Below are positions 30,344 through 39,343 of a stretch of 64,000 bases of DNA, piece by piece. The translations under genes and the position numbers were made by a program. The notes under the pieces are model-generated. The model did not search any database and was not told where the DNA came from. It saw nothing but the letters and a program-made list of their open reading frames with translations. Numbering within the stretch: the stretch's first letter is position 1; the number at the start of each line of letters is the position of its first letter. Source of the DNA: Leptospira sp. (GTDB taxonomy: Bacteria > Spirochaetota > Leptospiria > Leptospirales > Leptospiraceae); NCBI GenBank assembly GCA_034439575.1, contig JAWXAQ010000033.1, forward strand, positions 96,001-160,000, given 5' to 3'.

Positions 30344-31026
30344 AATTTACTTATATTGCCATCTAACATTGCTAATTGTATGTCACCCATTCTACCAATC
30401 TCAGGATTATGCGTTACCAAAAATACAGTGACTCCAAGTTCCTTAACACAATGTTGAAATAATTGCATAACAATATCAGAAGATACTGAATCTAAATTAC
30501 CTGTTGGTTCATCTGCTAAAATTAATTTTGGTTTGTGTACAAGTGCACGAGCAATAGCCACTCTTTGTTTTTCCCCTCCAGATAACTCCTTTGGAGAAAA
30601 AGTCATTCTATTTTCCATTTTGACAAGTTTAAGTGCTTCCACACCTAATTTTTCGGCATCGCGTCGCTTAACACTATTTAAATACAAAGGAATTATGGTA
30701 TTTTCAAGCGCATTCAAATATGGAAGCAGGTGAAAAAACTGAAATACAATTCCTATTGTATTTCGCCTATATAAAGTTAAATCTTTTTCGTTTTTCTGCG
30801 TTAAATTTTCACCAAATATTTCGATCCTTCCCGTATCAGCTGGTTCAATTGCAGATAAGATATTCAAGAATGTTGATTTTCCACTTCCCGATGGACCCAT
30901 CATAGTAATAAGATGACCTGAAGGGATTTCTAAATTGATCCCTTTTAAAATCGGTATACGTAGTTCTCCTTGGAAATAGGTTTTCGTAAGATTTGAGATT
31001 TTAATTTCTGAATTTTTGTTCTTCAT
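30340..31026 (-). CDS. ABC transporter ATP-binding protein (LolD-like)
   Basis: GPSGSGKST, LSGGEKQRVAIARA, LADEPTGNLD. Confidence 0.95.
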   Translation of the reverse strand: MKNKNSEIKISNLTKTYFQGELRIPILKGINLEIPSGHLITMMGPSGSGKSTFLNILSAIEPADTGRIEIFGENLTQKNEKDLTLYRRNTIGIVFQFFHLLPYLNALENTIIPLYLNSVKRRDAEKLGVEALKLVKMENRMTFSPKELSGGEKQRVAIARALVHKPKLILADEPTGNLDSVSSDIVMQLFQHCVKELGVTVFLVTHNPEIGRMGDIQLAMLDGNISKL

Positions 31027-31049
31027 TTAATTTTAAAATAATTTTAAAA

Positions 31050-31385
31050 ATGCTTTTCAAAACGGAAAATACTTATTTAATTGAATTGGTAGAAAAATTG
31101 GTATTTCGTTTAATCATAATTATAGCGGTTGTACTTTTTTTTGCAGGTAAGTCCAATTTCCCTTCATTCGCAAGTATTGAACCTGGCGAAAGTGAAGTTC
31201 CAGAACTGACCGAATCAAAACCCACACCGAAAGAAGAGTCGAAGTCTGACTTTTTCACCATCATTCCCATTCATTATTCTTATTGTTCCTTTCTTATTAG
31301 TCGATCTTCTGCTGTTAATCGTTCATCTGTTTCTTTCGAAACTTTTTCTTCTCTAACCAATCGCGGGCCCCCGCACAGAACCTAA
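31050..31385 (+). CDS. Secreted leader ORF with C-terminal RGPP motif (putative translation-arrest peptide)
   Basis: Hydrophobic signal RLIIIIAVVLFFA, polar linker, ends ...LTNRGPPHRT*; 35 nt before the Ehr operon; alternative in-frame TTG start at 31098. Confidence 0.65.
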   Translation: MLFKTENTYLIELVEKLVFRLIIIIAVVLFFAGKSNFPSFASIEPGESEVPELTESKPTPKEESKSDFFTIIPIHYSYCSFLISRSSAVNRSSVSFETFSSLTNRGPPHRT

Positions 31386-31420
31386 ACCTTTAAACTTTTT
31401 CTAAATTCTGCAAGGTAGGT

Positions 31421-33151
31421 ATGGTTATGAACCGTAAGTACTCTATATTGAGTTCTATTTTGGTCGGTGCAAGTGCACTGATTCCATTTTTGTATTTTAT
31501 TATTTATGTAAATGATCCATTGGGTGAAAATTTTCCCATATTTCTTGGGCTCAGTTTGCAAGTATATATTGGTTTTTCTGCATTTATGCTTGTACTGTCC
31601 TATGAGACTATTCATGCAAACCGTGTATCTTTAGGTTATGCGATCTTTTGGTCTTCGTTAGGTGTTTGTTATTTGGCGGGCAAATCAGTTTTGTTACCTG
31701 TTGCTCTTGAGATCGCATCCTTTTCTACGATCATTATTTATTCAGGAACAGAATTTGGTAAAAAGCAAATCGAGAGTTTAGGGGCTCTATTATTGGCTTC
31801 TGGGATTTCTGCGCTTTTTCTTTCTGCATGGGTCTTTTTGCCGGAATCCGATCCTAGAGGACTTATATTTTTAACTATTGGATTAATGGTTAAATCAGGA
31901 TTTTCCGGATTTCATATCTGGTTACCTAAAGTCAATGAAGGTGGGCCATCACACGCCTTGGGTTCGTTTGCTGGTGCTCTCGAAATATTCCCACTTTTAT
32001 TATTTAGTAAGTATGTATTGCCTTTCTATTCAGATACAAACCTCTATAGCATAATGTTTCCTTTAGCTGCCATGGGAGTTTTTTTTGGAGGCATAACATC
32101 CTTTTTTCATAAGGACCCAAAAAAAGCATTGGCTTATAGTTCCATTGAATCTATCAATTTTCTTTGGTTATGTCTTTCTACATCTGGTTTGTTCCAAGGA
32201 AGTCTAGATACTGATTTAAAATTTCTCAGCAATTCATTTTACATTCTGTTTTTCATTAGTTTATTACATCATTCTTTTTCAAAAACGTTCCAACTTTTTT
32301 CCATCGGACTTGTGGCAAGGTTGAGAAACTCAAGTTCTGCCGATGAAATGAAGGGAATCGGCAGGTATATTGGTATATCACCATTATGGATGGGGATCGG
32401 TACTTTCAGTTATGCGGTGATACCAGGTACAATTGGATTTGTTTCGGAGGCTACTTATTTATTTTTGAATGCCCGAATATTGGACATGCCACTTGGAAGA
32501 TCAGTGTTTTTGCTACCAGCTATGATTTTTATATTTTTTGGTATAGTGTTAGGTGGTTTTACACATATAAAATTATTTTTAAGTTTGTTTCTTTCTTTTC
32601 CAGATAAAAATATAACATTACCAGAGTGGAGTAAGGAACAAAAACTATGGGTTTTTATTTCCCTTGGAAGTTTAGCTTTGATGATTTTGTCCATCCCCAT
32701 CGCCTTACCGTTTATATTAAAAATTCCATCTCTTTCAAAGTATACAGATCCAATCCTAATGCAATGGATTCAGAGTTTATCCTTAGTCTCTAGCATAACT
32801 CTTATTTTTGTAATAAGTTTGGTTATGTTTCGTTGGGCCCACAAAATTCAAAGTAGGAAGTATTGGGACTGTGGAAATAGTTATTTTGGGTCAGAACTTT
32901 CTATCCCAGCCTCTGTTTTTTCAGAACCTCTCAGAAATTCCCTAGGAAGATATTTTTTAACAAAGGAAGGCCTTTCGATTATAGATCAAAGTTTTTTCAA
33001 ATTTTTTAAAAAGTTCTTAGATATTGGTGAATTTGTAATTCAAAAAGAGGATCATCACGATGAAGAAGTTAGTAAATATTTAGCCATCTCATCTGTATTT
33101 TTAATATTGATTCTCGCCATACTAATATTAGGTGATTGGGGGAAATTTTAA
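31421..33151 (+). CDS. HyfB-like (NuoL/MrpA family) antiporter subunit of a hydrogenase-4-like complex
   Basis: KSG..GFHIWLP, KKALAYSSIE, HHSFSK, GFVSE, YWDCG (start may be ATG 31427). Confidence 0.85.
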   Translation: MVMNRKYSILSSILVGASALIPFLYFIIYVNDPLGENFPIFLGLSLQVYIGFSAFMLVLSYETIHANRVSLGYAIFWSSLGVCYLAGKSVLLPVALEIASFSTIIIYSGTEFGKKQIESLGALLLASGISALFLSAWVFLPESDPRGLIFLTIGLMVKSGFSGFHIWLPKVNEGGPSHALGSFAGALEIFPLLLFSKYVLPFYSDTNLYSIMFPLAAMGVFFGGITSFFHKDPKKALAYSSIESINFLWLCLSTSGLFQGSLDTDLKFLSNSFYILFFISLLHHSFSKTFQLFSIGLVARLRNSSSADEMKGIGRYIGISPLWMGIGTFSYAVIPGTIGFVSEATYLFLNARILDMPLGRSVFLLPAMIFIFFGIVLGGFTHIKLFLSLFLSFPDKNITLPEWSKEQKLWVFISLGSLALMILSIPIALPFILKIPSLSKYTDPILMQWIQSLSLVSSITLIFVISLVMFRWAHKIQSRKYWDCGNSYFGSELSIPASVFSEPLRNSLGRYFLTKEGLSIIDQSFFKFFKKFLDIGEFVIQKEDHHDEEVSKYLAISSVFLILILAILILGDWGKF

Positions 33152-34035
33152 TGAATATTAATCCAATTATTATAATTTTTTACCAGTGTCTGATATTTTT
33201 TGTCCTTCCTTTAATCTTGGGTGGAATCGTTCGCAAAGTCAGAGCACAAACGCAAGGACGAAAAGGTTCAAGTATCTTTCAGGTTTTTTACGAAGTACGA
33301 AAGTATCTAATGAAAAAACCAATAGATAATCCGAATTCTGGAATATTTGCAGAATTGTCCCCAATGATAGCAGTATATGCGGCTCTTATGTTATGGTCTA
33401 TTGTGATTTTCGAATGGGCACCATTCATATTGATACCATTTTTCCTTGCTCTCTATAGATTCTGTTATGTGAGTTTTGCTATGGAGAGCGGGACATCATT
33501 TGGGGGCTTAGGTGCGAGTCGAGAAATCCTTTTATCTGTAATGGCGGAACCGACAATCATTTTAATGATACTCGCCGCACAGTCCCATATCGAACTGTCT
33601 CTTACTCCCGTTGGTGCTTTAATTGGTTTATTATTTTTGGGACTTTCCTTTATTGCGATACTTGCTGAACTCGCCAAACCTCCATTTGATGATCCAAGAA
33701 CTCATTTGGAATTAACTATGGTACATGAGGCAATGATACTTGAAGCCTCAGGTAAAACTATGGGATACCTTGAGCTTGCAAGTCAAATTAAATTATCCGC
33801 CTTACTCGCATTTCTAATTAAATTAGCATTAGAACATTCGAAATTGTTTCCCATTGGTGAATTCGGAAATTTGAGTAGAGAGTTATTGGTTTTACCTGGA
33901 ACAATTGCTCTTGCGGTATTACTTGGTTTTTGGGAGGCCGATAGCGTTAGGCGGAAGTGGACTTGGGTTCCGGAATTTATGGGATTATCTTTTTTGGCAA
34001 TTTTAATATTAGGGACATTGGTTAAATTGTCCTAA
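33151..34035 (+). CDS. HyfC/NuoH-like membrane subunit
   Basis: RKVRA..QGR.G, GLGASRE, PFDDP.THLELTMVHEAMILEASG. Confidence 0.9.
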   Translation: MNINPIIIIFYQCLIFFVLPLILGGIVRKVRAQTQGRKGSSIFQVFYEVRKYLMKKPIDNPNSGIFAELSPMIAVYAALMLWSIVIFEWAPFILIPFFLALYRFCYVSFAMESGTSFGGLGASREILLSVMAEPTIILMILAAQSHIELSLTPVGALIGLLFLGLSFIAILAELAKPPFDDPRTHLELTMVHEAMILEASGKTMGYLELASQIKLSALLAFLIKLALEHSKLFPIGEFGNLSRELLVLPGTIALAVLLGFWEADSVRRKWTWVPEFMGLSFLAILILGTLVKLS

Positions 34036-34044
34036 GGAAAATAT

Positions 34045-34656
34045 ATGTTATACGACTTTATATATCTCATACTGTTTCTTTCTGGTGTAGTCGTCTTAGT
34101 TGAAAATCGCCTTCATCGAATTACACTTTTTTTAAGTCTGCAGGGAATGTTATTGATCTTTCCTGTTTTGCAAACACACGAAGGAGATTTATTTCATTCG
34201 CTCGGTTTAATTACTTTGGTAGTATTATTCAAAGGAATTTTAACACCTATGATTTTAAATTGGACTGCCAAAAAATCCCAAATGAGAGAGAGCACTGTAC
34301 CAAGGTTTGGTTATTTGGCTACTTTGTTGTTTTTGGTTCTAGGCCTTATATTTGCAGTCAAAATTACTGAAGGTGTTAAGGAGTTATCTATACCTGTTCA
34401 TAAGATTGGTTTAATCTATGTTATACTGATGATTTATGTCGGAGTTCTCTGTTTTATCGTGAGGAGCAATTGGCTCGCATTGATAGCCGGGTTTTGTGTA
34501 TTTGAAAATGGCATCTTTGTATTAACGCTTGTTTTAGATAAAGGACTCCCCTTTGGATTAGAATTTGGCTCCTTTCTCGATGCAGTGCTTGTGATTGTAT
34601 CGGGCGGTATTTTGCAACTTTCTCCACATATGCATCCCAAAGGAGATAAACAATGA
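34045..34656 (+). CDS. HyfE-like membrane subunit
   Basis: LQG, KG..P, FENG, E.G..LD motifs; operon position. Confidence 0.85.
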   Translation: MLYDFIYLILFLSGVVVLVENRLHRITLFLSLQGMLLIFPVLQTHEGDLFHSLGLITLVVLFKGILTPMILNWTAKKSQMRESTVPRFGYLATLLFLVLGLIFAVKITEGVKELSIPVHKIGLIYVILMIYVGVLCFIVRSNWLALIAGFCVFENGIFVLTLVLDKGLPFGLEFGSFLDAVLVIVSGGILQLSPHMHPKGDKQ

Positions 34657-35870
34657 GCCAGAATATTTTTTTTATAACAGGTCTTTATTGTTTTTTTGTA
34701 GTATTCGGAATATTTATTTTCGCACCAACGAAAGGGCAAACAAGAATTTGGTTATGGTCCATCTTGAAAATATTTTTCTTCGGTGCTCTTTTTTCTTCGT
34801 GGTTCACAGAAAATATTGTGCTTAAATGGATTTTAATTGAAGCATCAACTTTATTTGGGTCACTTCTGATTTCATCCAGTGGAACCGAACGATCTTTCCA
34901 AGTGGGATGGAAATTTTTACTTATCAATTCATACGGATTAGGCATAGCTTTCCTTGGCATTGTGATTTTATTGTTTGCCTCAAAGCCATTAGATAGTTTG
35001 GATTTTTCTGCCTTAAAAATTGGCCTGGAAGGACAGTCTAGTTTGTTAGTTGAGACTGCTCTCTTATTATCTGTCTATGGATACAGTGCTAAATTGGGTC
35101 TTGTACCAAATCATTTTTGGGTAGGGGATACATATGCCGAAAGTCCAAGTCAGATATCATCGCTTATCGCATCTTTTGTGCCGGTGTCTGTGGCTCTTGC
35201 TTTAAGACCTCTCATCCAATTGGAAAAAGAAATAAATCCTTCTATCATTAATTCAGCAAATGGATTATTATTCATGGGTATTTTAACTATACTCTATGCG
35301 ACTTGGATTTTGCATAGAAGGGATGATATAAGAAGGATCGCTGCCAAAGTCGCATTATTTCATACAGGAATGTTGGCCGTATTTTTATGGTTAGATGTCA
35401 ATGACCAAGTATTCTATTTTTTACTTTCTTCTACTTTGATAGTGAAACTCTTAATCTTTGTTTCAATGGGAATATTAAGAATGGATTCTGGAAAGAGAAT
35501 GATCGCTCAAATCGTTGACTTACCATTTATAAATCAAAAATCTTTTTACGGATACTTTATCGCTTTAATTATCGCCTTTGTATTTCCTCTTTCTCCGGTA
35601 TTTATTTTGGATATGGAAATTATTAAAACGAGTTTATTTCAAAATAAGTTATGGTTGTTTAGTTTTCCTCTAATGGGATTGATTTTTTTCTATATTGCTC
35701 TAAACAAAATTTTACCAATCATCCGAGTCAAAAATAGAGAATTTGAATTGGTTCATAAACGAGTGTTACGGATCAGGTTGGGATTTTTGATTTTAAGTAT
35801 TGTCGTATCATTGGTGATAGGTGGACTTGGGATGTATTCCTTGATTACGAATGGAGGATATCATGTCTAA
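34653..35870 (+). CDS. HyfF-like (NuoN/MrpD family) antiporter subunit
   Basis: WILIEASTL, WKFLLI, GYSAKLGLVPNHFW..DTYAESP. Confidence 0.87.
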   Translation: MSQNIFFITGLYCFFVVFGIFIFAPTKGQTRIWLWSILKIFFFGALFSSWFTENIVLKWILIEASTLFGSLLISSSGTERSFQVGWKFLLINSYGLGIAFLGIVILLFASKPLDSLDFSALKIGLEGQSSLLVETALLLSVYGYSAKLGLVPNHFWVGDTYAESPSQISSLIASFVPVSVALALRPLIQLEKEINPSIINSANGLLFMGILTILYATWILHRRDDIRRIAAKVALFHTGMLAVFLWLDVNDQVFYFLLSSTLIVKLLIFVSMGILRMDSGKRMIAQIVDLPFINQKSFYGYFIALIIAFVFPLSPVFILDMEIIKTSLFQNKLWLFSFPLMGLIFFYIALNKILPIIRVKNREFELVHKRVLRIRLGFLILSIVVSLVIGGLGMYSLITNGGYHV

Positions 35871-37290
35871 ACCGACTGGCTTATTCTTTAATAAAAAAGA
35901 TCAATCATTCTATCAATTTCTATTGCTTGACCAAAAAATAAGTATGAAGAAAATTTCTGGAAAAAGAAGTCCCATCGATTTTCTTATGGATGAGAATTAC
36001 CCCATTTGGATACTTCGGCATTCCTTAGGTAAAGATATGGGACCGGAAGATTATTCCCATTTAACAGAAGCAGATTATCTCACTGAAAAAAGAAGTAAAG
36101 TATTAGGATTGCACCAACGCTCTGGATCTATTAGGGATTTATTTTTTCATGGAATCAATGTTCCTTGTAATGATAATTCATATTCGCATGCTGTTGGGCC
36201 AATACACGCAGGGATTATCGAACCAGGTCATTTTAGATTTGTGGTTGAAGGTGAAATGATACATCACCTAACAATAAGGCTTGGATTTCAAAATAGAGAT
36301 TTGCAGGCGAGTATTCATCAATCGGATACAAAAAAAATCATGCATATTTCTGAGGCGATTTCCGGAGATTCTTCTATTAGTTATGCTTTAGTTTTTTCAA
36401 AAATATTCGAAGAAGCAGCCAGAATCAAAATTTCAAAATCTGTTTCCTTGTTTCGATCTATCTTGGTCGAAATCGAACGTATTGCCATACATATTGGAGA
36501 TTTAGGTGGGCTTTCAGAAGATATTGGATATTATCCATTGTATGGTGTTTGTGTAACAGATAGAGGTGCAGCTCTTGGATTAATGGAAAATTGGACAGGA
36601 AATAGATTTGGTAAAGGAGCCATTCGTCCTGGTGGGGTTCGAGTTAATCGTAGAATTAGTGTTAAAGATGCTATGCTAGCGTTTGAATCTTTGAAAAAAA
36701 CATTTGTGAAAAACATTGAACCACAAATCGAGCGGGCATTAGTTGATTCTACCATTAAAGAAAGATTGCAAGGTTGTGGTCCAATCACAAAAGATGAAAT
36801 AAAAAAGAATGGATTTGTGGGTCAGACAGCCAGATGTGCAGGTGAATTAATCGACCTTCGTATCGCAGACGATAATTATCCAAACTGGAAATCATTACCC
36901 ATAGAAGAAGATCAGGTTAATTATTCTGGGGATGCATGGGCTAGATTTTATTTAAGATACAACGAGATAAAACAATCCTTAGACTGGATAAATCGCACAC
37001 TTCCAGAGATAAATTGGGATGATCTTTGGTCAGATGAACAAAATAATAAGACAAATAAAACTTATCCCCTACAAGCTGGAATTTATTATAACACGGTAGA
37101 ATCTTGGCGTGGTCCAATTCTTGTATCCTTGCTGATTGATGAATTGGGAAAAGTTACTGATTCCTATATCAGGGACCCTTCGGTTTTGAATTGGCATGCA
37201 CTTGAACTTGCTGTAAGAGGTGAGTTAATCGGAGATTTCCCATTGAACAACAAATCGTTTAATTTAAGTTACGCTGGATTTGATTTATGA
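35863..37290 (+). CDS. HyfG/NuoD-like large subunit lacking NiFe cysteines (EhrL type)
   Basis: VGPIHAGIIEPGHFRF, EIERIAIH, GDAWARF, VESWRG, RDPS, DFPLNNKSFNLSYAG; GGAGG SD. Confidence 0.9.
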   Translation: MSKPTGLFFNKKDQSFYQFLLLDQKISMKKISGKRSPIDFLMDENYPIWILRHSLGKDMGPEDYSHLTEADYLTEKRSKVLGLHQRSGSIRDLFFHGINVPCNDNSYSHAVGPIHAGIIEPGHFRFVVEGEMIHHLTIRLGFQNRDLQASIHQSDTKKIMHISEAISGDSSISYALVFSKIFEEAARIKISKSVSLFRSILVEIERIAIHIGDLGGLSEDIGYYPLYGVCVTDRGAALGLMENWTGNRFGKGAIRPGGVRVNRRISVKDAMLAFESLKKTFVKNIEPQIERALVDSTIKERLQGCGPITKDEIKKNGFVGQTARCAGELIDLRIADDNYPNWKSLPIEEDQVNYSGDAWARFYLRYNEIKQSLDWINRTLPEINWDDLWSDEQNNKTNKTYPLQAGIYYNTVESWRGPILVSLLIDELGKVTDSYIRDPSVLNWHALELAVRGELIGDFPLNNKSFNLSYAGFDL

Positions 37291-38102
37291 GACAACTATT
37301 AGAAATCACAAATTTTTTCTCAAAAAACCAGACTATGGACTGGGATAATGCAGCATTGGTTCATCCGAAAAATAGAGGGATCCCTACACCCACAAAAAAA
37401 ATGTTAGGTGGATGTAATGAATGTGCTTCTTGCATAACTTCCTGCCCGACGATGGCTATCGAAAAAAAATCAAATACATTAATCCAATTTGATTATGGTG
37501 CCTGCATTCAATGTGGTGAATGTGTTTCCCATTGTCCTGATCAAAAATTAAAAAACTCTGGTTTCAACTATGTTTTTAGTAAACATAGGGATGACTTGGT
37601 TGTAAATTACGAAGCTGGCGCACTCGTTTGGAAAGATACGACAGAAGATTCAGACAATCATAAACAATTTCAAAAATTGACTAAATCCAATGGATTTTTA
37701 TACAGAGAAGTAGCCGCCGGTGGAAATAATTCGGCAGAGTGTGAATTGAATGCTTCTTTTAATTCTGTTTTTGATTCAGAACGAGAGGGTGTTCGCTGTG
37801 TTGCGAGCCCTAAACATGCGGATGCAATTGTTTACTCGGGACCCATTTCCAAAAATATGGAAGGTCCCCTAAATGACGCATTTGCCGTCATAGCAGAACC
37901 GAAAGCCTTGATCGCCTGCGGAACTGAGGCCATAAGTGGTGGTTTATTTAAACTAGGGAAACAACCCAAGGTACCAGATTTATTTATTGGAGGTGATCCT
38001 CCGAGGCCTGATGTGATTCTGCAGGCCTTCCGTTATTTAATGGGAAGATTTTCTTTTTCTTTCCAAGAGGCGCTTCACAAATTTTTGCAATCTGAAAAAT
38101 AA
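37287..38102 (+). CDS. Fused 2x[4Fe-4S] ferredoxin (HyfH/NuoI-like) and NuoB/HyfI-like small subunit
   Basis: CNECASCITSCP and CIQCGECVSHCP; SPKHAD, EPK, AISGG, GDPPRP. Confidence 0.88.
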   Translation: MRQLLEITNFFSKNQTMDWDNAALVHPKNRGIPTPTKKMLGGCNECASCITSCPTMAIEKKSNTLIQFDYGACIQCGECVSHCPDQKLKNSGFNYVFSKHRDDLVVNYEAGALVWKDTTEDSDNHKQFQKLTKSNGFLYREVAAGGNNSAECELNASFNSVFDSEREGVRCVASPKHADAIVYSGPISKNMEGPLNDAFAVIAEPKALIACGTEAISGGLFKLGKQPKVPDLFIGGDPPRPDVILQAFRYLMGRFSFSFQEALHKFLQSEK

Positions 38103-38107
38103 GGTAT

Positions 38108-39343
38108 GTGCAATTAGAAAAAGAAGAAATCGTTCGTATTCTATTTATCGAACCAGACAAAAAGTCCCATGACATCTTGGTTGGTTTGTTAAAAGACTGG
38201 TTCCAAGATTACGTAGAAATTGTTTGGCGGTCTATTTATGAAAATGGGATCACTGAATTAAAAAAAGGCAATTTTGATTTAATCATATCTGAAGTGATTT
38301 TTCCTGAAAGAGATGATACCGAGGAAGTGGTGTTAATTGATCTTTCGGAAGTTGCTGGACGGCATGAAGTTCCCATAGTCATATTTTCAAATTCGACTGA
38401 CAAAAGTTTACCGATATTATCTTTCCAATTGGGCATAAGCGAATTTTTTCCAAAGAAAAGGATCGATAAATCTTTAATCGAACATCGCATCCGTAATTTA
38501 TTCCGAGAAATCTATCGCAAAAAAGTAATTTCGATTCAAATGGATGATTCTTTTAGAAGATTTCAAGAAATGTATGGCATGAACCAAACAGAGATTCAAG
38601 ATTTGAATACTCTTGTTAAAAAATTTAAACAAGACTTAGAAAAAGAATACGAAGAAAAATTAAAATTAGAATTTGAAAAAAAGAAAATGCAAAACGTATT
38701 CGGGATGTATGTAGATCCTGTAGTTGTTGAAAGTATAATGAACAATTCATTTTCATTGGACCAAAAAGGGCATGTTCAAGAAGTATCTGTAATTTTTTCG
38801 GATATACGTGGTTATACGACTCTTTCAGAAAAACAAAAACCAGACCAAGTCATATCTTTTTTAAATGAATACTTTACTGCTATGACTGAAGTGATCCTCG
38901 GTTATGGAGGTATGATCGACAAGTATATTGGTGATTCCATCATGTGTTTGTTTGGTGCTCCCATATTCCAAGAAGAACATAGGCAAAACGCATTGGACTG
39001 CGCCATAGAAATGGTACAAGTTTTTCAGTTATGGCAACCAAAATGGCAAGAGATTTATGGATTCACGCCTGAGCTTGGTATTGGGATTGCTTCGGGCAAT
39101 GCTATTGTTGGTAACGTTGGTTCCTTCCAAAAATTATCTTATACCGCAGTCGGTGATACTGTCAATATGGCGAGTCGCTTAGAATCAATGGCAAAACCTA
39201 TGCATGTATATGTATCTGAGGGTTTGTATAATTATTTGCCAGAAAGTTATGCTTCAAAGTACATTTATGAAGAATTGGAACCTGTAAAGATCAAAGGCAA
39301 AGAAGGATTGCACCGAATATTAAGTGTGAAGCCTCTCGCCTAA
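38108..39343 (+). CDS. Receiver-like domain + coiled coil + class III adenylate cyclase
   Basis: ILFIE...FDLIISE receiver fold; FSDIRGYT, DKYIGD, YTAVGDTVNMASRLE, IKGK. Confidence 0.9.
   Translation: MQLEKEEIVRILFIEPDKKSHDILVGLLKDWFQDYVEIVWRSIYENGITELKKGNFDLIISEVIFPERDDTEEVVLIDLSEVAGRHEVPIVIFSNSTDKSLPILSFQLGISEFFPKKRIDKSLIEHRIRNLFREIYRKKVISIQMDDSFRRFQEMYGMNQTEIQDLNTLVKKFKQDLEKEYEEKLKLEFEKKKMQNVFGMYVDPVVVESIMNNSFSLDQKGHVQEVSVIFSDIRGYTTLSEKQKPDQVISFLNEYFTAMTEVILGYGGMIDKYIGDSIMCLFGAPIFQEEHRQNALDCAIEMVQVFQLWQPKWQEIYGFTPELGIGIASGNAIVGNVGSFQKLSYTAVGDTVNMASRLESMAKPMHVYVSEGLYNYLPESYASKYIYEELEPVKIKGKEGLHRILSVKPLA

Follow-up and report, generated by a model that had tools for sequence, protein, structure and literature searches.

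A 64,000-nt stretch of Leptospira sp. DNA (assembly GCA_034439575.1, contig JAWXAQ010000033.1, positions 96,001 to 160,000 of the forward strand; hereafter the window, in which all coordinates are counted) carries a short open reading frame (ORF) that ends in Arg-Gly-Pro-Pro (RGPP) and lies upstream of a six-gene Ehr/Hyf-like operon. We consider it likely that this ORF is a translation-arrest leader of the RAPP/RGPP class that controls the Ehr operon in cis. The initial annotation had proposed such a leader, and the ORF, the RGPP codons, ACCTAAACCTT, the Shine–Dalgarno (SD) sequence AAGGTAGGT, and the hyfB-like ATG all lie in the window sequence where it placed them. The parts of the locus are as follows.

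31088 to 31092, forward strand: SD-like GGTAG, 5 nt 5′ of the probable TTG start; relatives carry AAGGT, GAGGT, or GAGG at the same offset, with TTG or ATG starts.
31098 to 31385, forward strand: leader ORF, 95 aa plus stop, from the homologous start; relatives have 94–100 aa.
31107 to 31148, forward strand: signal-like hydrophobic N-terminal segment R4 to G17, RLIIIIAVVLFFAG, then K18-S19, assigned by hydropathy only.
31179 to 31250, forward strand: acidic patch E28 to D51, by residue positions in the window leader.
31362 to 31373, forward strand: codons for R89-G90-P91-P92, from the window sequence.
31380 to 31390, forward strand: candidate anti-SD ACCTAAACCTT, overlapping the leader stop TAA (31383–31385) and pairing with 31412–31420 in the minimum-free-energy (MFE) fold.
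31412 to 31423, forward strand: SD AAGGTAGGT (31412–31420) and ATG (31421) of the first Ehr gene, from the window sequence.
31421 to 38102, forward strand: six-gene Ehr/Hyf-like operon, from Pfam, NCBIfam, and translation.

In the window sequence the motif codons CGC GGG CCC CCG are followed by CAC AGA ACC and the stop. The ORF as called mechanically runs from ATG 31050 to the stop at 31385 (111 aa); homology to relatives places the leader start probably at TTG 31098, which gives the 95-aa form. Database entries of the relatives, annotated as hypothetical proteins, begin at the equivalent position. Such entries occur in L. ognonensis, L. yanagawae, L. vanthielii, L. wolbachii, and other species, and the leader-bearing genus is the saprophytic Leptospira group. 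The best 11-residue Kyte–Doolittle window in the signal-like segment has a mean of 3.76. A Pfam search matched no family to this leader or to three paralogous leaders of the same genome, and a promoter scan of 30900–31500 returned zero sigma-70-like sites. Published toeprints (PMC12992588) were used to assign the expected stall, with CCC 31368–31370 in the P site and CCG 31371–31373 in the A site.

Within the genus, 40 of 41 genomes have the hyfB-like gene; for the whole family the count is 111 of 114 genomes, spread over 13 of 14 genera. We read the upstream DNA of 117 hyfB-like loci, leaving out G101 (match at a contig start) and G045 (match with four stops). A leader precedes the gene at 55 of these loci across the family, and within the genus a leader of the same build lies upstream of the orthologous gene at 35 of 40 loci. 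The 35 congeneric leaders end in RGPP (23), RGSP (9), or RAPP (3), with the Arg and the last Pro invariant, which upholds the expectation of the initial annotation that the motif would be conserved in orthologues. Synteny was read in place of whole-peptide homology, which was dropped as a survey method: a whole-peptide search matched only 7 of 40 congeners, mostly with interrupting stops, indicating that the leader sequence evolves fast.

Congeneric leaders share one design. They have 94–100 aa and mostly a TTG start after AAGGT, GAGGT, or GAGG; the N-terminus consists of one Arg, 13–15 hydrophobic residues, and G-K-S, and is followed by an acidic stretch and a variable middle. The C-terminus is R-[AG]-[PS]-P plus 2–8 residues before the stop (3 residues in 27 of 35). 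Judged by hydropathy only, the best 11-residue window lies between 2.6 and 3.8 in all 35. The leader stop and the hyfB-like start are on the same strand and 29–41 nt apart at all 35 loci, and the other 34 leader-bearing congeners carry the GAGGT SD of the first Ehr gene at an identical offset.

Loss of the leader and change of the initiation region coincide in four of the leaderless congeners. L026, L029, L032, and L037 have neither the leader ORF nor GAGGT before hyfB; TTTGGTCAAC precedes the ATG, and ~400 nt are retained between the ABC gene and hyfB. At the fifth, L048, the ABC gene lies 52 nt from hyfB. A search for leader remnants in these five congeners found none recognizable: similarity is limited to the first ~130 nt (the side facing the ABC gene) of the 450-nt upstream stretch, and stops occur in all frames.

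The substitution pattern indicates that the ORF is coding and that the motif is under protein-level constraint. The 35 congeneric leaders contain no in-frame stop, against 154 and 177 stops in the other two frames. Among 16 gap-free close relatives, 50, 37, and 83 of the 95 codons vary at positions 1, 2, and 3, respectively. Across species the motif Arg is encoded by CGC, CGT, CGG, CGA, AGG, and AGA, and all four GGN and all four CCN codons are used for Gly and Pro. In 15 diverse representatives (mean column identity 37%), M1, E36, R89, and P92 are invariant and R4, K18, E28, and E31 are at least 90% conserved. Conservation is confined to the signal segment, the acidic patch, and the last residues; residues ~50–81 vary freely among the 16 close relatives.

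The leader and its motif recur far beyond chance. Six-frame translation of this genome gives 21,601 segments of 50 aa or more; RGPP occurs five times among them, in two cases at most 8 aa from a stop. The only other near-stop RGPP of the genome (G000) is on the minus strand of contig C2, at segment offset 169528, in a 51-aa segment ending …FRGPPNVCLIS.

These properties match those of a characterized class of arrest peptides. RAPP and RGPP support arrest in several peptide contexts, with RGPP the strongest and the Arg irreplaceable, and toeprints of RAPP peptides and CruR put the third motif codon in the P site (PMC12992588). Seven S. lividans peptides and B. pertussis CruR have been validated (Fujiwara 2025, PMC12992588). 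No tetrapeptide is more depleted than RGPP in 10 major bacterial groups, and RAPP/RGPP motifs are concentrated close to the C-terminal ends of small membrane or secretory proteins encoded ahead of functionally diverse genes, including those for TonB receptors, YcnI, PCuAC, PepSY, DsbA-like proteins, and sigma factors (PMC12992588). Like the members of the class (ApdA, ApdP, ApcA, CruR, and the S. lividans peptides; Sakiyama 2021, PMC7897499; PMC12992588), the Ehr leader is a small protein with an N-terminal localization signal, has R-[AG]-P-P a few residues from the stop, keeps the Arg and the last Pro invariant, and precedes a close same-strand gene that need not be Sec or YidC. The window leader itself combines R-[AG]-P-P near the C-terminus, a length below 300 aa, an N-terminal hydrophobic segment, and a close same-strand gene. 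With the conserved motif, the synonymous codon drift, and the open frame, it displays the defining sequence traits of the class, in agreement with the identity first given to it.

The Ehr leaders also depart from the class in three respects: they precede a complex-I/hydrogenase-4-like operon, they conserve a sharply placed acidic patch rather than Cys/His sites, and 9 of the 35 in the genus carry RGSP, which is not part of the validated core (PMC12992588). The initial annotation knew of no described pairing of this kind. That statement is somewhat too broad, as RAPP/RGPP leaders before non-Sec genes were published in 2025 (PMC12992588). We found no paper linking RAPP/RGPP leaders to Ehr, hydrogenase, or Leptospira. 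What is new here is the Ehr target and the geometry of the acidic patch. The main text of PMC12992588 does not contain the terms hydrogenase, NADH, antiporter, proton, respirat*, oxidoreductase, or Leptospira, and its figures and supplements, which list downstream classes, may include them; Spirochaetota is named once, in a figure legend on motif depletion. The text of PMC10987492, as far as it is covered here, does not mention Leptospira or Spirochaet*.

Other genera of the family carry a leader of the same build with a different motif. There the hyfB-like gene is preceded by a 100–112-aa ORF ending in [IL]PPP plus 2–5 residues, found at 20 loci (15 IPPP and 5 LPPP) and bearing an N-terminal signal-like segment. 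These PPP-type leaders are also coding by the criterion of frame: 18 of them contain no in-frame stop, against 128 and 151 stops in the other frames. In Planctomycetota, LPPP leaders that precede secA form a validated arrest class, and the third codon of the motif occupies the P site (Fujiwara 2024, PMC10987492). Like those uA_LPPP peptides, the sister-genus leaders have a signal-like N-terminus and carry [IL]PPP among their last 8 residues; unlike them, they precede a hyfB-like gene rather than secA, mostly carry Ile, and belong to a different phylum (PMC10987492). The leader is distributed among the genera as follows.

g1 (own genus): leader at 35 of 40 loci examined.
g2: leader at 1 of 1 locus.
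g3: leader at 2 of 4 loci.
g4: leader at 0 of 3 loci.
g5: leader at 2 of 2 loci.
g6: leader at 1 of 2 loci.
g7: leader at 4 of 4 loci.
g8: leader at 1 of 2 loci.
g9: leader at 1 of 2 loci.
g10: leader at 0 of 1 locus.
g12: leader at 0 of 22 loci.
g13: leader at 1 of 23 loci.
g14: leader at 7 of 11 loci.

Genomes with two hyfB paralogues have the leader before one copy only. In g12, and in most of g13, hyfB directly adjoins a large outer-membrane-like gene; a look upstream of that gene found no leader at nine of nine loci. At the g14 loci L054, L057, L061, L068, L072, and L090 the IPPP leader ends 90–237 nt before the hyfB-like gene. In the first five of these an SD with an ATG or TTG start lies 47–54 nt 3′ of the PPP codons and is predicted to pair with them, as for CCTCCTCC with GGAGGTGG in L054 and L072; in L090 the first SD and start site, 116 nt downstream of the PPP codons, is that of hyfB itself.

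The two leader types share the placement of the acidic patch. We aligned 53 leaders (35 R-type, with the R-[AG]-[PS]-P ending, and 18 PPP-type) on the expected P-site residue and profiled them in 5-residue bins. The acidic fraction is at most 0.08 in every bin from 0 to 39 residues; at 40–49 residues it is 0.25–0.37 in the R-type (15 representatives) and 0.39–0.47 in the PPP-type (16 representatives). The nearest edge of the first acidic cluster lies at a median of 41 residues from the P site in R-type leaders (22 of 35 at exactly 41; range 7–54) and 42 in PPP-type leaders (range 25–46), and the signal segment lies ~75–94 residues away. Net charge at 40–65 residues is −7.1 (R-type) and −5.9 (PPP-type), compared with +1.1 and +0.7 at 3–39 residues. 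In the window leader D51 and E28 stand 40 and 63 residues before P91, and the net charge at 40–65 residues is −5. The two classes are unlike in total length and in their N-terminal part; what stays constant is therefore how far the patch lies from the stall site.

Published force measurements bear on this spacing. In force profiles, the segment ~45 residues from the peptidyl-transferase center makes first membrane contact (bioRxiv 2021.12.23.474019; PMC7886326), and in E. coli SecM arrest was released when the membrane potential pulled on acidic residues (Ismail 2015, as described in PMC6028853). The constructs of Ismail 2015 likewise have a targeting signal and, after it, acidic residues at a defined distance from an arrest motif; they are engineered, whereas the Ehr leader is natural and conserved (PMC6028853). 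The spacing of the acidic patch fits and plausibly sharpens the force-sensor idea of the initial annotation, in which export or proton-motive force would be sensed.

From the observed conservation and anatomy we infer a course of stalling, release by pulling, and output. The signal-like N-terminus would bring the nascent chain to the Sec/YidC machinery. When R89-G90-P91 has been reached and the Pro92 codon occupies the A site, peptide-bond formation would stall, with the last ~40 residues in or at the exit tunnel and the acidic patch, 40–63 residues back, at the translocon. Translocation pull, aided by membrane potential on the negative charges, would then end the stall. A long stall would park the ribosome 44 nt 5′ of the SD of the first Ehr gene, and the parked ribosome would most likely raise translation of that gene by keeping the 3′ end of the leader from pairing with the initiation region. 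That the leader peptide stalls the ribosome is, on its sequence, quite likely; that the stall controls the Ehr operon is probable, with somewhat less assurance. That stalling turns the operon on by unmasking the initiation region falls a little short of an even chance, and export or membrane potential as the sensed signal is a tentative proposal held lower still.

The proposed course has counterparts among monitoring peptides. SecM, MifM, and VemP combine a signal or transmembrane segment with C-terminal arrest, are released by the pulling force of export, and affect translation of the next gene; the SecM motif RAGP shares the R-x-x-P frame of the Ehr leader motif, and VemP ties arrest to an ion-motive-force-dependent step (SecDF). 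Unlike the targets of these three, the genes downstream of the Ehr leader (PF00361, PF00146, PF00346, PF01058, Fer4) are not protein-localization machinery, and no SD-sequestering helix could be shown for the Ehr leader.

Several observations weigh against an arrest leader that controls the Ehr operon. At the level of the peptide, the RGSP of 9 of 35 congeners lies outside the validated core set, and replacing the third-position Pro with anything but Gly abolished arrest in ApdA and ApdP (PMC12992588). RGSP and RGPP interchange between near-identical leaders (L033 and L041), so strong arrest may not be needed. At the level of distribution, the leader is missing from 5 of 40 congeners and from every one of 22 loci in another large genus. 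Comparison of the R-type and PPP-type profiles detected no homology (hhalign probability 1.3%), so common descent of the two leader classes is suggested by synteny only. The remaining points concern the RNA. The MFE fold of 31362–31430 (−13.6 kcal/mol) contains the ACCTAAACCTT/AAGGTAGGT pairing, and of 200 dinucleotide shuffles 99 reach an equal or lower energy (z 0.05); RNAalifold returned zero consensus pairs on the 35 loci. Candidate partners vary by lineage: the stop region faces the SD in the window and in L015, and in the largest clade ACAUAAC (last codon plus stop) faces GUUAUGU (the hyfB start) around an inner hairpin CUUUAAAA/UUUUGAGG, a pairing that single-sided changes in L034, L040, and L047 break without compensation. 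The duplex between the stop region and the initiation region has −6.9 kcal/mol, weakly better than the −5.4 kcal/mol of control windows. In the ensemble model the initiation region is opened no less by a ribosome that terminates than by one that stalls (0.38; 17 of 35 loci), and at PPP-type loci accessibility is unchanged by a stalled ribosome (0.38 to 0.38).

Two further parts of the RNA analysis concern the SD. Pairing between the 27 nt around the stall and the first downstream SD is −8.3 in PPP-type leaders against −4.7 in other leader windows (z −1.9; 7 of 18 in the top 5%) and −6.4 against −4.9 in R-type leaders (z −0.87; 8 of 35 in the top 5%); part of it is the built-in complementarity of CCUCC proline codons to GGAGG. 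In favor of the arrest leader, modeled SD-through-AUG accessibility with a ribosome at the stall site rises from 0.26 to 0.37 in the R-type, with a gain above 0.15 at 9 of 35 loci, compared with 2 of 35 when the ribosome is placed 30 nt upstream. The initial annotation had the stalled ribosome cover the anti-SD of a hairpin that sequesters the SD. That specific hairpin is not supported: it has no covariation over the 35 loci and an energy at chance, and only the first 4–5 nt of the 11-nt anti-SD fall within ~+15 nt of the P-site codon, the modeled stalled ribosome lifting SD accessibility in the window only from 0.02 to 0.18. An on-switch in which the stall frees the SD is possible.

The same leader could act with the opposite sign or by another route, Ehr translation needing ribosomes that finish the leader and then open or reuse the initiation region (coupling), with the stall lowering expression or acting through mRNA decay or transcription polarity. 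The leader stop lies just 29–41 nt from the hyfB-like start, a ribosome at the last sense codon opens the initiation region at 17 of 35 loci compared with 9 of 35 for a stalled one, the ACAUAAC/GUUAUGU complementarity of one clade joins the leader's end to the start region, and a paralogous LPPP leader in the genome precedes a terminator-like hairpin, which shows that outputs can differ. We nonetheless regard a reversed or different output as unlikely: the characterized monitoring peptides SecM, MifM, and VemP all turn the downstream gene on when stalled (PMC11470409), and the clade-specific stem is broken, uncompensated, in L034, L040, and L047.

Three further small ORFs of like build in the genome end in [SN]LPPP, all before RND efflux genes, so proline-stall leaders appear to be a general device in these bacteria. 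One of them, on contig C12 of G000 (121078–121404, forward strand; L130:179–505), encodes 108 aa, has a hydrophobic N-terminus and an acidic stretch, and ends …SLPPPSLV. A gap of 66 nt separates it from a downstream ACR_tran (RND) gene of 1085 aa (L130:572–3829), after which come a pyrophosphatase gene and an OEP gene; a hairpin TTTGGTCT…AGACCAAA overlaps the last codons and stop of the small ORF. An LPPP-ending ORF precedes the orthologous RND gene at 30 of 30 best-matching congeneric loci examined. On the minus strand of contig C8 of G000, two tandem leader-like ORFs of 126 and 124 aa (L131:5617–5997 and L131:4980–5354), ending …SLPPPV and …NLPPPNLT, precede an operon of OEP, HlyD_D23, a 250-aa protein, and ACR_tran. 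Behind the first of the pair come a terminator-like hairpin and a T-run, an arrangement suggestive of attenuation and not of SD masking.

The link of LPPP leaders to efflux pumps keeps alive a second alternative, an arrest peptide whose acidic patch senses a periplasmic cation (metal, Na+, or Ca2+) through folding or charge and thereby changes the pull. The known non-Sec RAPP leaders, CruR and the S. lividans peptides with Cys/His sites, sense copper (PMC12992588), and leaders resembling the Ehr leader stand before RND/OEP/HlyD efflux operons in the same genome, the C12 leader being kept at all 30 congeneric loci. We judge cation sensing improbable: the Ehr leaders have no conserved Cys, His, or Met cluster, and the acidic stretch of the C12 RND leader lies elsewhere, 58–79 residues from the P-site residue, which marks the 40-residue spacing as a feature of the Ehr leaders specifically.

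It is very unlikely that the product of the ORF is a small protein, exported or in the membrane, that serves its own function, such as an Ehr subunit or assembly factor, in which the proline motif is incidental or a targeting pause. Its annotation as a hypothetical protein in several Leptospira genomes and the conserved order of leader and Ehr operon would suit such a protein. The free variation of residues ~50–81, with conservation only in the signal segment, acidic patch, and last residues, argues against it, as do the exchange of the motif for another stalling motif in sister genera, the strongest avoidance of RGPP among tetrapeptides in 10 major bacterial groups (PMC12992588), and the five congeners that lost the leader yet keep the hyfB-like gene. 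That the region is untranslated and conserved as RNA or promoter is extremely improbable, given a frame open at 55 loci, with zero in-frame stops against 128–177 off-frame per frame and class, third positions that vary most, synonymous drift of the motif codons, and no consensus RNA structure.

Returning to the arrest leader, its most specific form would be a natural membrane-potential gauge: the patch at 40–65 residues would be pulled electrophoretically, through the translocon, freeing the RGPP or [IL]PPP stall and matching synthesis of an ion-translocating Ehr complex to the energization of the membrane, in an old Leptospiraceae design that survived a swap of two unrelated stalling motifs. 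Taken as a whole, we hold this version to be speculative and rather doubtful.

The downstream operon encodes a HyfB-like (576 aa), a NuoH-like (299 aa), a HyfE-like (203 aa), a HyfF-like (405 aa), and a NuoD-like (479 aa) subunit and a Fer4+NuoB-like fusion protein (271 aa). Pfam assigns PF00361 to the HyfB/NuoL-like and HyfF-like proteins, PF00146 to the NuoH-like, PF00346 to the NuoD-like, and PF01058 plus Fer4 to the fusion protein; the NCBIfam scores of the operon proteins are all under the curated cut-offs. On its translation the NuoD-like protein is without CxxC at either end, the positions that bind the metal in the large subunit of NiFe hydrogenases. The Ehr label, hydrogenase-related and not hydrogenase, fits because these cysteine pairs are absent: the subunit set is hydrogenase-4/complex-I-like with a large subunit lacking NiFe cysteine motifs, which is how Ehr is defined. 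An ABC ATPase gene and an FtsX-type permease gene lie upstream and are divergent. One further gene adjoins the operon.

38108 to 39343, forward strand: receiver domain plus guanylate/adenylate cyclase (class III) gene (PF00211, 9.2e-28; PF00072 below cut-off).

This gene begins 5 nt 3′ of the Ehr operon, and its position suggests a cyclic-nucleotide output tied to the Ehr complex. Within the hyfB-like coding region, 42 nt from its start, a terminator-like hairpin with a T-run occupies 31462–31483 of the forward strand. It is the sole match of a terminator scan in which 0.4 ± 0.5 matches were expected. Should it be real, it could tie transcription to how the first gene is translated.

A look-up of sequencing runs listed no RNA run that contains the locus. 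Among four sequencing runs, two labeled RNA-Seq were flagged as probably DNA. Their short contigs bridge 31286–31436 and 31343–31519 and are uninformative on transcripts because of that probable source. DNA of the organism was found in microbial-mat and other environmental metagenomes. The hyfB-like N-terminus encoded on L174, a 3.7-kb metagenome contig labeled as part of a bin of uncultured Candidatus Berkiella, shares 68% identity with that of the window; this identity is in line with Leptospira relatives, and the contig is probably mis-binned Leptospira DNA.

If the arrest leader is real, nascent-chain sensing would serve, beyond genes for protein export and metal homeostasis, a membrane complex of the respiratory, complex-I-like type. 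The enigmatic Ehr complexes would gain a testable regulatory input, and the trigger of the operon would hint at the role of the complex. The conserved spacing of the patch would offer a direct and inexpensive way to ask if an arrest peptide serves cells as a voltmeter, and the orthologous loci with R[AG]PP or [IL]PPP would form a natural experiment in how far one arrest motif can stand in for another. L. biflexa and other saprophytic Leptospira are harmless and genetically tractable, which makes these ideas testable in the group that carries the leader.

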